Assembly (NCBI GenBank): GCA_963737065.1
Contig: CAVTRC010000001.1
Location: forward strand, 480,001 to 544,000
From: Candidatus Eremiobacteria bacterium
Lineage (GTDB): Bacteria; Vulcanimicrobiota; Vulcanimicrobiia; Vulcanimicrobiales; Vulcanimicrobiaceae
Length of the DNA stretch: 64,000 nucleotides
Direction of reading: 5' to 3'
The position numbers were made by a program. Below, piece after piece: positions 15,001 to 18,000 of the stretch. Numbering within the stretch: the first letter of the stretch is position 1; each line of letters starts with the position of its first letter.

Positions 15001-18000
15001 AATATACCGGGCGATCGCCGCGCGGCCGGAAGGGCAGTGTCGTGCTCACGCCGCACTGCGCGCATACCGCCTCGAAGGTTGGGCGTTGTGCCGGCGACGC
15101 AATCTCGCCGTTCTGCGAACGCCGCGCTTGGCGACACTCACGACAACGTTGCGGCTGATTTACGAAGCCTTTCTCTGCGAAAAATTGCTGTTCGCGTGCA
15201 GAGAAAACGAACTGCGTACCACAGTCCTTACAAGTGAGCATCTTGTCTTCCACTGAGTAGGAGCCTCCGCGCGAGCACTACTTGGGCTTGCTCAAATGCG
15301 ACTTTGGTAAGAGAACCCCTCCTTCGGAACGGTACGCAGCCAAGCGACGGCGCTCAAAAGCGAACTAGTCGCTGCGCGCGTTTTTCGCATCCTCGGCGGC
15401 TATCGTCGGGTGCGTCTCGTCGTTCGTGTTCCGCGGCTCCGCATCGTTTCGTATAATGACCGGCCGTGGGCCGTTGTCCGACTCGTCGATCGGCGGGTTT
15501 TGATCTTCGTCGCTGTCTAGCGTGCCGCGATCAACGAGCGGGTCGCCGTCGCGAGTGAATTTATTGCGATCAGTCATAATGCGGGGTCGTACCCACGCTA
15601 TTACGATCGGAACCCGGCGCGCGGCGATTCATGCTGGTGCGCGAGCGCAACGAGCGACGCGGCGGCCATGGCCGCGAAATACCCTTTATCGCCTCGCTTG
15701 GGGTCGGCACGCTCAGCTGCCTGTTCCATGTTTTCCGTCGTCAACACGCCGAATCCGATCGGAACGTTGGTGGAAAGTTGCACCGCCATGATTCCGCGAG
15801 CGCATTCGCCCGCGACAAAATCGAAGTGCGGCGTTTCGCCTCGGACGATGGCGCCGAGCGCCACGACGCCGTCCACGTTGTCTTTCGCAATGATGCACTT
15901 CGATGCGAGGGGAAGCTCAAAACAACCCGGCACGTCGTAGACCAGAATGTCGGCGGGCTTTACCCCACACTCGGCGAGCGCATGTTGCGCGCCTTCTACG
16001 AGCAAATCGCTGAGCTCGCGATAGAACCGCGCAGCGATGATTGCAAACCGTTTTCCGGTGCAATCCGGCGCGGGCGAAGCGTTGGTACTTCCGTTCTGTC
16101 CGCTCCGCGGCTTCACGAAGCGACCGTCTCGTCGAACATGTGGCCGAGTTTGGCGCGCTTTGTCGCCATGTACCGCTTGTTGTGGACGGTCGGCTGCGTT
16201 TGCATCGGCACGCGCCCGACGATCGTCAACCCGTAGCCCTCCAGCCCAAAGATCTTGCGCGGATTGTTCGTGATCAACCGCATCTCTTTGATGCCGATAT
16301 CGGCAAGAATCTGCGAGCCGATACCGTAGTCGCGCTTATCGATCGGAAGTCCAAGCGCGACATTCGCTTCCACGGTGTCGGCGCCGCGATCTTGCAACTC
16401 GTAGGCGCGCAGCTTGTTGGCAAGTCCGATGCCGCGTCCTTCTTGCCGTAGATACAGAAAGACTCCGCGGCCTTCTTTCGCGATCATCGTCATCGCGCCG
16501 TCGCGCTGCGCGGCGCAATCGCAGCGAACCGATTGCAAAGCGTCGCCGGTCAAACACTCGGAGTGCACGCGCACCAACACGTCTTTGCCGTCGCTGATGT
16601 CTCCCATGACGAGCGCGACATGCGTATTGCCGTCGATTGTCGTTTCGTAAGCGACGCCTCTCCAATCGCCCGTCGTCGAAGGCAGCGTGAATTCGGCAAC
16701 TTTTCTTACGAGTTTTTCCGTGCGCATCCGATAGGCGATGAGGTCCTTCACGGTGATCAGCTTAAGGCCGTGGCGATCGGCATACTTGCGTAACCCCTCT
16801 AGACGCTCCATCGTTCCGTCTTCCGCCATGATTTCGCAGATGACGCCGGCCGGGTACAGTCCCGCGAGGCGCGCGAGATCGATCGACGCCTCGGTCTGTC
16901 CTGCCCTCACGAGCACGCCGCCGTCACGCGCGCGCAACGGAAACGTGTGACCGGGGCGCAAGAAATCGGTGGATGTCGCATTTGGATCGATCAGTTTTTT
17001 GATCGTCGCCGCACGATCGTGCGCTGAGATTCCGGTGGTCGTAACGCCGCGAGCTTCTACGGATACGGTAAATGCCGTCTCGTGGACAGCCGTATTTTCA
17101 TTGACCATTTGCGGAATCTGCAGTTGGTCGAGGCGCGTGCCGACCATCGGCACGCAGATGAGGCCCCCGGCCTCCTTGCGCATGAAGTTGATTGCGTCCG
17201 CGCTAACCATCTGTGCCGCCATAACGAGGTCGCCTTCGTTCTCGCGGTCCTCATCGTCGAGCACGACGACCATCTTCCCGGCGCGGACATCATCGACGGC
17301 GTCTTCGATGGAATCGAACTCGCTCTCAGGCTCTTGATCGGCCGACGGCGCGAGTTCGGGCAGCACGTTGGTGAGGCGCCGCAAGGTTCCGTACGACGGT
17401 TCTCTGCGGCCCGAACGCAGAAGCGACACAGCCGATTCCGTCACCCCTGAACGCTGGGCAAGCTCCACTGCGGAAAGACCCGCCGCATCCATCGCAGCGT
17501 TAAGGGCGTCGGCGAACAGACTCATCTCCCCACGGTATGGCGCCGACTTGACAAATGTCAAGCTAGGCTGCACCGCCTGACTTTGCGTATTACATAGTCC
17601 ATGGGGTTGGTTCGTAGCCGGCCGGTTAGTAGGCAGCGACTTCGCGCGTAAGCGAGCTTGGGCTTTAAACGAACACTTCTTTTGGGTACACTCCGCGTAG
17701 ATTCTGTAATACAATGTAGTACTTACACGGGGGAAGGAGAGCCCCTCTGCCTAGGATCACGCGACTGTATTAGGACCAAAACAATGAGGACCCATTTATG
17801 GGAGCGCCGGGTCAGTCCGGAAGACGTAGAGGAAATTCTGTTAGGATGCGACGGCGAGGAACCGACATACCGACAGCGCCGCGACAGCGACTACCTCGTT
17901 ATCTACGGAGAAACCGGAGGCGGAAGGTTACTTAAAATGGTCGGGGAGTTTCTGTCGGATGGGCACTTCAGGGTGTTCAGCGCGATCGACATGGACGACG

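Follow-up and report, generated by a model that had tools for sequence, protein, structure and literature searches.

Bacterial riboflavin control is described as riboswitch-based, and in some bacteria the FMN riboswitch controls ribB only (excerpts of PMC5397151). A protein-based system is described for archaea, namely RbkR, a CTP-dependent riboflavin kinase and regulator bearing a winged helix-turn-helix (HTH) at its N terminus, for which palindromic sites are predicted at rib genes, and in 36 genomes rbkR-ribB is inferred to be autoregulated. According to the same excerpts, RbkR controls several rib and transporter operons and is an activator that FMN releases (PMC5397151). The excerpts also name BirA, NadR and PutA as bifunctional enzyme/repressors, or ‘trigger enzymes’ (PMC5397151).

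The locus described here lies in a window of 64,000 nucleotides (the whole stretch of DNA that was analysed) from a Candidatus Eremiobacteria bacterium and encodes an Xre-type HTH fused to RibBA. It resembles RbkR, as far as the latter is described in the excerpted text, in that a riboflavin enzyme carries an N-terminal DNA-binding domain in organisms without FMN riboswitches (PMC5397151). RbkR, however, is an archaeal late-step kinase with a winged HTH that activates several operons, whereas HTH-RibBA is a bacterial protein of the first steps with an Xre-type HTH_3 domain, and its candidate site stands at one operon only, in a position suggestive of repression. Pfam finds neither a riboflavin kinase nor a winged HTH in HTH-RibBA, which is an analogue and not a member of RbkR. 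HTH-RibBA shares two traits with the trigger enzymes, in that a DNA-binding domain and an enzyme share one polypeptide and a candidate operator stands at genes of the same pathway, but BirA, NadR and PutA serve other pathways through other DNA-binding folds and have demonstrated ligand-dependent DNA binding, whereas HTH-RibBA is known from sequence. The FMN riboswitch (RF00050) is an RNA element that senses FMN, and none is found at HTH-ribBA; its control of ribB only, in the same pathway, is nonetheless comparable to control of ribBA only by HTH-RibBA. R-M controllers and phage repressors are small Xre-type dimers that autoregulate via palindromes over their own −35 region; the 434 operator is 14 bp long and C-protein transcripts are leaderless. 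The best structural matches to the HTH described here include C.AhdI, C.BclI and Cro/434/P22 c2. These are stand-alone, self-dimerising proteins of ~70-100 residues, whereas the HTH of HTH-RibBA has four helices and is attached to a 400-residue enzyme, through which the dimer is presumably formed. With its fused domain and rib gene neighbours HTH-RibBA is not an R-M controller, and only the fold and the circuit logic are alike.

The features of the locus, in window positions, are as follows.

15601..16116, minus strand: ribH, lumazine synthase (PF00885, E 1.6e-48)
16113..17525, minus strand: HTH-ribBA gene (P0001), 470 codons and a stop codon (16113-16115), from the frame and its translation
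16206..16703, minus strand: GTP cyclohydrolase II (RibA) domain (PF00925; aligns to 4I14)
16731..17306, minus strand: DHBP synthase (RibB) domain (PF00926; aligns to the RibBA structure 4I14)
17310..17354, minus strand: variable linker, residues 58-72 (pLDDT 49-53; poorly conserved alignment columns)
17355..17525, minus strand: Xre-type HTH domain, residues 1-57 (Pfam HTH_3/HTH_31, AF2 model, fold matches)
17523..17525, minus strand: ATG start codon giving the 470-aa form (alignment of relatives)
17532..17537, minus strand: −10-like hexamer TACCGT (TAnnnT), lying between the −35 box (18 nt away) and the ATG (6 nt away)
17548..17561, minus strand: perfect 14-bp palindrome TTGACATTTGTCAA, candidate operator, overlapping the −35 hexamer and conserved upstream of ribBA
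17556..17561, minus strand: −35 hexamer TTGACA, identical with the left half-site (sequence; conserved spacing to the −10-like hexamer)
17658..18288, plus strand: two small overlapping ORFs in the 1.2-kb spacer, the second with RHH_1 (E 3.3e-4)
18796..20937, minus strand: ribD, ribE and a 4HBT thioesterase (Pfam), a separate upstream unit without operator
20934-21536: ComF-like gene, its stop overlapped by the ribD start

The longest frame at the HTH-ribBA locus comprises 533 aa. Pfam finds in its translation HTH_31 at residues 67-118 (E 5.7e-7, 30.2 bits against a cut-off of 27), HTH_3 at 73-118 (E 2.3e-7, 31.2 bits against 23), DHBP_synthase (PF00926) at 137-328 (E 4.8e-86, 287.6 bits against 26.4) and GTP_cyclohydro2 (PF00925) at 338-503 (E 1.7e-69, 233 bits against 23.3). 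HTH-RibBA is a single polypeptide, as no stop separates the HTH from the enzyme domains and the frame is kept in relatives; the Xre-type HTH comes first, then ~15 residues of flexible linker, and finally DHBP synthase followed by GTP cyclohydrolase II. The fusion reported in an earlier note on this DNA is thus real, with the domains given there in one open frame on the minus strand, shifted by the choice of start. That choice, the TTG at 17561, was wrong: the TTG opens the conserved −35 hexamer TTGACA, and the alignments of relatives begin at residue 1-4 of the 470-aa protein read from ATG 17525. Database homologues are mostly 468-472 aa long, and the alignments place the true start at this ATG. 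Residues 69-463 are collinear with M. tuberculosis RibBA (4I14) over both enzyme domains (E 3.1e-138), and the acidic loop DDEDRENEGD and the motif HSECLTGD...RCDC are present in that alignment. HTH-RibBA is the sole match for each of PF00926 and PF00925 in this 95%-complete genome, which also holds ribD, ribE and ribH (Pfam).

The AF2 model of the HTH alone has a mean pLDDT of 87, with values of 90-97 over residues 1-60, and displays helices at residues 3-15, 19-26, 30-38 (the recognition helix) and 45-54. It superposes on the DNA-binding domains of C.BclI, C.AhdI, SinR, P22 c2 and 434 Cro with an rmsd of 0.9-1.8 Å over 53-61 columns and a TM score, normalised to the query, of 0.68-0.73; the Foldseek E-values of the fold matches are 0.006-0.05, none being 0.001 or lower. 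HppE and HEPD, in which an Xre-like domain sits on an enzyme without known DNA binding, are also found among the fold matches. A PDB profile search with the HTH returned Xre/Cro-type repressors (best E 1.8e-4). Among relatives, F4, L8, A19, A23, G27, T29, E30, A32, S34, R41, P43, L51 and P56 are invariant, and identity in the HTH is far above that in the linker. Model and alignment support a well conserved, confidently folded Xre-type domain of the DNA-binding type. The AF2 model of the full-length protein has a mean pLDDT of 61, the enzyme domains, built from a shallow alignment, being of poor quality, and it was therefore not used for contacts between the HTH and the enzyme.

Operator sites had not been sought previously. 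The search reported here found a conserved palindrome on ribBA's own promoter, (c)TTGACAnnTGTnAA(g), in which the flanking C 17562 and G 17547 stretch the symmetry to 16 bp. The pattern TTGACANNTGTNAA has a single exact match in the 3.08-Mb genome (G000), at ribBA, and with one mismatch allowed there are 5 more, compared to 11 for a reversed-pattern control. The exact palindrome is present in 30 of 41 family genomes, all 30 of which have one within 50 nt upstream of ribBA; the 41 genomes hold 6 further exact sites away from ribBA, and the reversed-pattern control gives 6 hits in total. The additional sites include G004:C1:630251 and G029:C163:5316. Most family genomes carry a single site, and at ribBA it stands alone, not as a tandem distal/proximal pair, the exception being locus L027. 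Among the HTH-bearing loci of 32 genera the palindrome is found upstream of ribBA in 32/32 (24 exact, 8 with 1-2 mismatches), and in the species-level set of 83 loci, 81 of which had enough upstream DNA to be counted, in 81/81 (71 exact, 10 with one mismatch), although these large counts reflect a single origin because the HTH-bearing genomes form one clade. The palindrome accompanies ribBA across contexts: after ribE, beside divergent genes and, in this genome, after an inserted gene pair.

The right half-site falls in the promoter spacer, where the promoter itself requires no conservation. In the 32 loci, T9 of this half-site is kept in 29/32 and G10, T11, A13 and A14 in 32/32 each, while the information content of the rest of the spacer is 0.1-0.8 bit per position. 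Changes of G3 in the same set are matched by the complement at position 12 (TTTACG..TGTAAA, TTAACG..TGTTAA). The geometry TTGACA-N16-18-TAnnnT-N6-7-ATG/GTG is shared by 24/32 and 71/81 loci, and since the TAnnnT ends 6-7 nt before the ATG/GTG, the ribBA mRNA is probably leaderless, its transcript probably starting at or next to the A of the ATG. In a consensus scan of 15200-18000 no promoter-like site was called, since TACCGT, the −10 hexamer, fits TATAAT at only 3/6 positions; the promoter was assigned by comparative spacing alone. The leaderless geometry is missing in 8/32 loci, in some of which the palindrome is only 15-16 nt from the start codon, and the mode of repression may therefore differ between genera.

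The order of the cluster is as the earlier note had it: ribD, ribE, 4HBT, the 1.2-kb spacer, HTH-ribBA, ribH. The GTG start of ribH overlaps the ribBA stop (GTGA), so we take ribBA-ribH to be one operon. The ribD-ribE-4HBT unit is translationally coupled to the upstream ComF-like gene, and the genome-wide pattern search, also with one mismatch, gave no match there. With its sole genomic site at ribBA-ribH and none at ribD-ribE-4HBT, HTH-RibBA would be an autoregulator of one operon. The two spacer ORFs, the first of which has no Pfam match, look like an inserted toxin-antitoxin-like pair outside the rib system. The reported lack of an FMN riboswitch was borne out: RF00050 has 0 matches in this genome and in 0/150 phylum genomes, compared to 7/14 control genomes with a match, and none appears in window positions 14500-23000 even at E up to 10. 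A leaderless mRNA would probably leave no room for a riboswitch at ribBA. The proposal that the fusion takes the place of the FMN riboswitch, however, is not supported, as no riboswitch was found in any of the 150 phylum genomes searched, including HTH-less ones such as those of family f3 (9/9).

In the 40 other family genera sampled, full-length HTH-RibBA is present in 34 and split by contig ends or a frameshift in 4 (G003, G005, G007, G019); the rest are G022, where the contig stops 15 nt beyond the match and truncates the protein, and G038, whose RibBA has no HTH. The fusion is thus kept in 38/40 genera, in agreement with its reported persistence across the family, but it is not limited to one family, since a sister family of the same order (f2) carries it in 2/2 genomes; within the phylum it is confined to that one order. 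The match of G022 ‘from residue 62’ was rejected as an HTH loss (contig end), and the alignment of G114 ‘from residue 34’ was rejected as an HTH (read-through into ribE).

Where the HTH is missing, so is the operator. Neither is found at ribBA of G166 and G038. G111 has lost the HTH and kept the promoter (TTGACA-N17-TAGCCT-N6-ATG), and its right half-site has decayed to TTGACAccGTTTGC. The exact palindrome occurs genome-wide in 0/3 of these HTH-less f1 genomes. In f3, ribBA lacks the HTH in 9/9, directly follows ribE and has no palindrome. Throughout the loci compared, ribBA genes with the HTH have the conserved palindrome upstream and those without the HTH lack it, the independent events being only about three losses. 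As palindrome and HTH were gained and lost together, regulation by the enzyme itself is the best reading.

The explanation that we favour, with a probability of about 0.68, is that HTH-RibBA works as a bifunctional riboflavin enzyme and doubles as the repressor of the operon encoding it, ribBA-ribH. Solved RibB and RibBA enzymes are dimers through the DHBP synthase domain. HTH-RibBA would dimerise via this domain, and the dimer would place one HTH on each half-site of the palindrome, whose centre is near −29.5. Bound in this manner, it would keep RNA polymerase off the −35 box, so that ribBA-ribH transcription would fall as the protein accumulates. Of the earlier claim that the fusion is a DNA-binding regulator, regulation by the enzyme endures as the best reading, backed by a candidate operator on its own promoter that is lost with the HTH; the scope shrinks from ‘the rib genes’ to one operon.

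Among the competing explanations, the HTH may be a structural or oligomerisation module that does not bind DNA, the palindrome being either an element of the promoter or another regulator's site. The fold matches to HppE and HEPD, both enzymes whose N-terminal domain is Xre-like, are in keeping with this, and an identical palindrome precedes an ArsR-type gene in G158, an HTH-less f3 genome, which shows that such palindromes can serve other regulators (the G158 palindrome belongs to the ArsR-type gene and was rejected as a rib site). We nevertheless regard this explanation as unlikely considering that (i) the right half-site of G111 was lost exactly where the HTH was lost, with the promoter kept, (ii) none of the three HTH-less f1 genomes has a site, (iii) T29, E30, A32 and S34 of the recognition helix do not vary, (iv) one site per genome, as in most genomes, fits a dedicated local regulator, and (v) G000 has no close paralogue of the HTH (1 match).

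Less probable still is that HTH-RibBA binds the palindrome but activates, by positive feedback or in a ligand-dependent manner. The −10 element is weak (TAnnnT), the closest folds include the controller proteins C.BclI and C.AhdI, and R-M controller proteins activate at distal sites. RbkR, too, is described in the excerpted text as an activator, deactivated by FMN (PMC5397151). The site, however, coincides with a perfect TTGACA −35 hexamer instead of lying upstream of a poor one, it lacks the tandem distal and proximal arrangement except in L027, and G111 keeps the promoter with neither HTH nor half-site, so the promoter can evidently work without the protein. Least probable of all is that a gene merger with a neighbouring Xre autoregulator left behind a fusion that is now nearly neutral, with little effect on riboflavin supply: three family genera do live without the HTH, and the rest of the phylum without either HTH or FMN riboswitch, but such a leftover is hard to square with a fusion kept in 38/40 sampled genera, an HTH more conserved than its linker and an operator kept in 81/81 loci.

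Within the favoured explanation, repression of ribBA-ribH by its own product, the odds between a trigger enzyme and plain negative autoregulation are about even. The sensing of substrate or product load, which the earlier note ascribed to the fusion, is pure inference, and the data are matched just as well by plain autoregulation, in which the first pathway enzyme would be kept at a steady level. We put forward only tentatively, as a possibility that we doubt, that HTH-RibBA is a trigger enzyme that senses flux and the first bacterial regulator of riboflavin synthesis to be a protein. In that case, a substrate, product or flavin in the enzyme sites (candidate ligands are ribulose 5-phosphate, GTP, the products and flavins) would govern where the tethered HTHs lie or how freely they move, and thereby whether the dimer occupies the palindrome that covers its −35 box. 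Such control would be exerted at the first committed steps and not on FMN via an RNA leader.

Occurrence of the fusion outside the phylum, which had been left unsearched, was examined in 154 RibBA loci from many phyla. The HTH was found in four loci of three records, labelled Verrucomicrobiia (L162 and L068, one record), Vulcanimicrobiota (L163) and Acidiferrales (L166). All four are Eremiobacterota-type sequence with the same operator, and a Babeliales-labelled record (L288) also bears the exact operator; the Verrucomicrobiia, Acidiferrales and Babeliales labels were rejected as evidence of independent occurrences. Long upstream frames in other RibBA loci were dismissed as non-coding read-through of GC-rich DNA, and P0140, P0152 and P0241 as reversed RibA-RibB proteins. 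A similar fusion does exist in a small Chloroflexota group: P0255, P0286 and P0287 (Dehalococcoidia) display HTH_3 (8.4e-10), DHBP synthase and GTP cyclohydrolase II. Only 3 such clusters were found, known here from protein records, their loci being absent from both genome scans. The three domains are in the same order as in HTH-RibBA, but the recognition helix is different and the overall identity of 60% is carried by the enzyme part, which is 69% identical to Dehalococcoidales RibBA compared to 60-62% to the clade described here. If separate, the Chloroflexota fusion would mean that the HTH-RibBA solution arose more than once.

We found no paper on the HTH-RibBA fusion in the literature. In the available portion of a 2026 riboflavin review (PMC13028884), the terms ‘RbkR’, ‘HTH’ and ‘bifunctional regulator’ are absent, and the ‘transcription factor’ and ‘repressor’ passages seen there concern yeasts, fungi and plants. 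RibBA most likely turns off its own gene here, a form of protein-based control so far undescribed for bacterial riboflavin synthesis. The idea of a new protein-based, enzyme-embedded control accordingly needs narrowing to the bacterial case, RbkR being already known from archaea, as the excerpts relate (PMC5397151).

The data suggest a compact protein circuit, its enzyme, repressor, operator and promoter all contained within 1.45 kb. One member of the phylum, Vulcanimicrobium alpinus, is in culture (excerpt of PMC9758169), and in-vivo work may therefore be possible. Such a circuit would extend the short list of enzyme/repressor fusions by one of Xre type and give archaeal RbkR a bacterial counterpart that acts at the first step.

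The HTH-ribBA gene is a single open frame in which the helix-turn-helix (HTH_3 and HTH_31), DHBP_synthase and GTP_cyclohydro2 domains follow one another, all exceeding their Pfam cut-offs, which bears out the fusion described in the earlier note. The elements of the locus, read from the sequence, open frames, Pfam matches and an alignment of relatives, are:

Upstream of ribBA, minus strand: ribD, ribE and a 4HBT thioesterase gene (Pfam and sequence).
17658-18288, plus strand: two small overlapping ORFs that occupy the 1.2-kb spacer between the 4HBT gene and ribBA.
17714 to the stop at 16113-16115, minus strand: HTH-ribBA open frame (frame reading).
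17561-17556, minus strand: −35 hexamer TTGACA (sequence).
17548-17561, upstream of ribBA (minus strand): perfect palindrome TTGACATTTGTCAA, candidate operator (alignment of relatives).
17537-17532, minus strand: −10-like hexamer TACCGT, N18 after TTGACA.
Between TACCGT and the start codon ATG at 17525, minus strand: GGGGAG (sequence).
Directly after ribBA, minus strand: ribH, whose GTG overlaps the ribBA stop as GTGA (sequence and Pfam).

Because of this overlap, ribBA and ribH form one unit. The start of ribD overlaps the stop of a ComF-like gene, for which the hits to a double zinc ribbon and a phosphoribosyltransferase domain are both sub-threshold. The first spacer ORF gave no match in a Pfam search and the second encodes a ribbon-helix-helix domain (RHH_1, E 3.3e-4); the two look like an inserted toxin-antitoxin-like pair, and the contents of this position differ in relatives. 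On the 3′ side of ribH lie a small protein with two treble-clef zinc-finger domains (14960-15253, minus strand; zf_Tbcl 1.2e-22, zf_Tbcl_2 1.4e-16) and an MtnA/eIF-2B-family gene (13887-15137).

In the predicted structure, the N-terminal 72 residues form a four-helix domain with a disordered linker on its C-terminal side (mean pLDDT 87). Foldseek matched this HTH to C.BclI, C.AhdI, SinR, CapH, P22 c2, 434 Cro, DdrO, ClgR, HipB and HigA (TM ~0.7, rmsd ~1-2 Å, E 0.006-0.05, the usual range at so small a size), and a PDB sequence profile search returned Xre/Cro-type repressors (best E 1.8e-4). In an alignment of 26 sequences from different genera, all from published loci (A2), 13 HTH positions are invariant, including T29, E30, A32 and S34 of the recognition helix, and the linker is variable. 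Also among the Foldseek matches are Xre-like domains found in two enzymes, HppE and HEPD; that the HTH is a structural domain that does not bind DNA is nevertheless, in our judgement, unlikely. Residues 69-463 align with the RibBA structure 4I14 (E 3e-138). As the 95%-complete genome holds one copy each of DHBP synthase and GTP cyclohydrolase II, both in HTH-RibBA, gene content indicates that the fused protein must be a working riboflavin enzyme.

The start proposed earlier, a TTG at 17561, was not sustained: when ATG 17525 is taken as the start, matches in 41 genomes of the host family, Vulcanimicrobiaceae, set in at residue 1-4. Most database homologues have 468-472 amino acids, and 118 of the 120 best carry PF01381 together with both enzyme domains. 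The layout TTGACA-N16-18-TAnnnT-N6-7-in-frame ATG/GTG recurs in 24 of 32 loci (32 genera) and in 71 of 81 species-level loci, with no conserved Shine-Dalgarno sequence upstream of the ribBA start. Since the −10-like hexamer ends 6-7 nt before the start and such a sequence is lacking, this promoter geometry suggests that the ribBA mRNA is probably leaderless; C-protein transcripts are leaderless. A simple consensus promoter scan called nothing in the ribBA upstream region because TACCGT agrees with TATAAT at only 3 of 6 positions.

Operator sites had previously been left unsearched, and an alignment of the sequences preceding the start codons gave a conserved palindrome at ribBA with the consensus (c)TTGACAnnTGTnAA(g). 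The 434 operator is of the same size, 14 bp. In the 3.08-Mb host genome TTGACANNTGTNAA matched once only, at the ribBA palindrome; allowing one mismatch added 5 sites, compared to 11 for a reversed-pattern control, which is chance level, and none of these matches lies at ribD. Of the earlier proposal that the enzyme controls the rib genes, the part concerning ribBA thus gains a predicted operator, but ribD has no such site. The exact palindrome occurs in 30 of the 41 family genomes, in all 30 at most 50 nt upstream of ribBA, with 6 further exact sites away from ribBA across the 41; the reversed-pattern control gave 6 hits in total. A site with at most two mismatches lies within 80 nt of the start in all 32 HTH-bearing loci (24 exact), and the wider set has one in 81 of 81 loci (71 exact), figures in which some conservation arises by construction, as the best match in each 80-nt window was taken. 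The exact-match chance expectation, calculated from base composition, is ~5 per million such windows.

Within the promoter spacer, T9, G10, T11, A13 and A14 of the right half are conserved in 29-32 of 32 loci, compared to 0.1-0.8 bit at the other spacer positions. Changes at G3 of the left half are matched by the complementary base at position 12 (TTTACG..TGTAAA, TTAACG..TGTTAA), and flanking C and G (25/32 each) lengthen the symmetry. Together, these properties show that the putative right half-site is not just part of the promoter. The family and phylum distribution, the 41-genome palindrome, the 32-locus site and column and the 24/32 promoter figures include genomes marked as unpublished (G008, G019, G021, G028, G029 and G153; loci L018, L020, L024, L028, L035 and L036); the column statistics of the site also hold when only the 28 published loci are counted. 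A caution on the operator reading comes from G158, a genome of the same class without the fusion, where a palindrome identical to that of the window (L205 1554-1567; G158:C1:612853) lies far from ribBA, 7 nt in front of a gene for an ArsR-type regulator that is divergent from a cupin gene.

Two genera (L031, G001:C129:513; L032, G020:C41:1581) carry a second perfect palindrome, whose 15-nt upstream flank is identical to that of their own ribBA site, upstream of an aldo/keto reductase gene (PF00248, E 1e-77 and 8e-81) and of a conserved, uncharacterised gene of 208-212 aa; it may be a regulon extension or a duplicated promoter. In the unpublished genome G019, a second perfect palindrome (L035, G019:C78:1532) lies between the 4HBT gene and DUF4386/DUF6326 membrane-protein genes, which sit there between ribD-ribE-4HBT and ribBA. 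Another inverted repeat with 9-bp arms, ACTTGAAAC-N3-4-GTTTCAAGT, found about 60-90 nt upstream of the candidate operator in L004, L006, L007 and L166, adjoins the divergent gene start and is probably another regulator's site. The motif TGCCCATAAAA and its complement occur in 2-3 copies upstream of ribBA in one subclade (L002/L162, L003, L008, L010, L011) and also near the second palindrome in L032.

In agreement with the conservation reported earlier, HTH-RibBA is full-length in 34 of the 40 other genera of the family and split by contig ends or a frameshift in 4 (G003, G005, G007, G019); it is truncated by a contig end in G022, and ribBA lacks the HTH in G038. In G005 (C1:823177-824563, in a near-complete three-contig genome) the break falls between the DHBP synthase part and the GTP cyclohydrolase II part: one frame covers residues 4-253 and the other 253-467, with a 2-nt overlap, which is either a true division into HTH-RibB and RibA or a frameshift introduced by sequencing. 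When 151 phylum genomes were searched with the first 120 residues, matches started at or before residue 4 in 67 of 70 family genomes (in G022, G111 and G166 only at residue 61-72), the sister family of the same order matched fully in 2/2 genomes, and 9/9 genomes of f3, a family of the same class, matched only from residue 50 or later. No contiguous HTH-DHBP synthase match was found in other families of this set; an apparent case in G114 was rejected as a read-through into ribE.

A profile-pattern scan of species representatives found the HTH encoded in 211 stretches; the labels on the 80 best are Vulcanimicrobiota, Eremiobacteraeota, Baltobacteraceae, Cybelea, Elarobacter, Tumulicola and the like, except for a few oddly labelled MAGs of the same sequence type. 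PMC10927679 uses the name Vulcanimicrobiota for Candidatus Eremiobacterota/WPS-2. Among 154 RibBA loci from many phyla, an HTH occurred outside the phylum only in records with the host-clade sequence type. Public MAGs labelled Verrucomicrobiia (L068/L162), Candidatus Acidiferrales (L166) and Candidatus Babeliales (L288) carry an Eremiobacterota-type HTH-ribBA with its candidate operator, and the labels or binning of these contigs look wrong. A separate small HTH-RibBA group exists in Chloroflexota/Dehalococcoidia (P0255, a partial protein named 'helix-turn-helix domain-containing protein'; P0286; and P0287, with HTH_3 at E 8.4e-10 and both enzyme domains), and the fusion is therefore not unique to Vulcanimicrobiota; the recognition helix of this group is unlike that of the host protein and its enzyme part is nearer to Dehalococcoidales RibBA.

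No FMN riboswitch was found in the window, the host genome or 150 phylum genomes, as the earlier note had stated for a smaller set, by a search that detected 7/14 positive controls. Since the riboswitch is equally missing from lineages that have no HTH, its absence does not result from the fusion but characterises the phylum as sampled, and the idea that the fusion takes its place gains no support.

Loss of the HTH is accompanied by absence of the site. In the 9 f3 genomes, ribBA lacks both and immediately follows ribE; within the family, both are missing in G166, where ribBA is behind ribE, and in G038, where its start is Shine-Dalgarno-led. The most telling case is G111 (L039, G111:C17, about 11540-11600), a natural HTH deletion with a decayed right half-site: its protein opens with the DHBP synthase domain, and TTGACA-N17-TAGCCT-N6-ATG survives as the promoter, with GTTTGC in place of TGTnAA at the right half-site. 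The exact site is found nowhere in G166, G038 or G111 (0/3). With only ~3 independent losses, in one clade, the co-loss is suggestive rather than statistical.

Combining these findings, we propose that HTH-RibBA autorepresses ribBA-ribH, a reading to which we assign a probability of roughly 0.7. DHBP synthase is a dimerising enzyme. The enzyme part would hold the HTH-RibBA dimer together, the dimer would bind the palindrome, whose centre is near −29.5, with its two HTHs, and, once bound, it would occlude the −35 box of the probably leaderless ribBA-ribH promoter. Repression is favoured over activation, which we consider improbable, because the −35 hexamer is perfect and the promoter persists without the HTH in G111. 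That the fusion is a nearly neutral relic seems very improbable.

Beyond autorepression, it is a tentative possibility that HTH-RibBA is a true trigger enzyme, with metabolites modulating its predicted DNA binding. The literature searched held nothing on an HTH-RibBA fusion. The logic is common to BirA, NadR and PutA, and the closest known system is archaeal RbkR (PMC5397151), which follows the same principle but differs in enzyme, HTH class, domain of life, regulon size and proposed sign.
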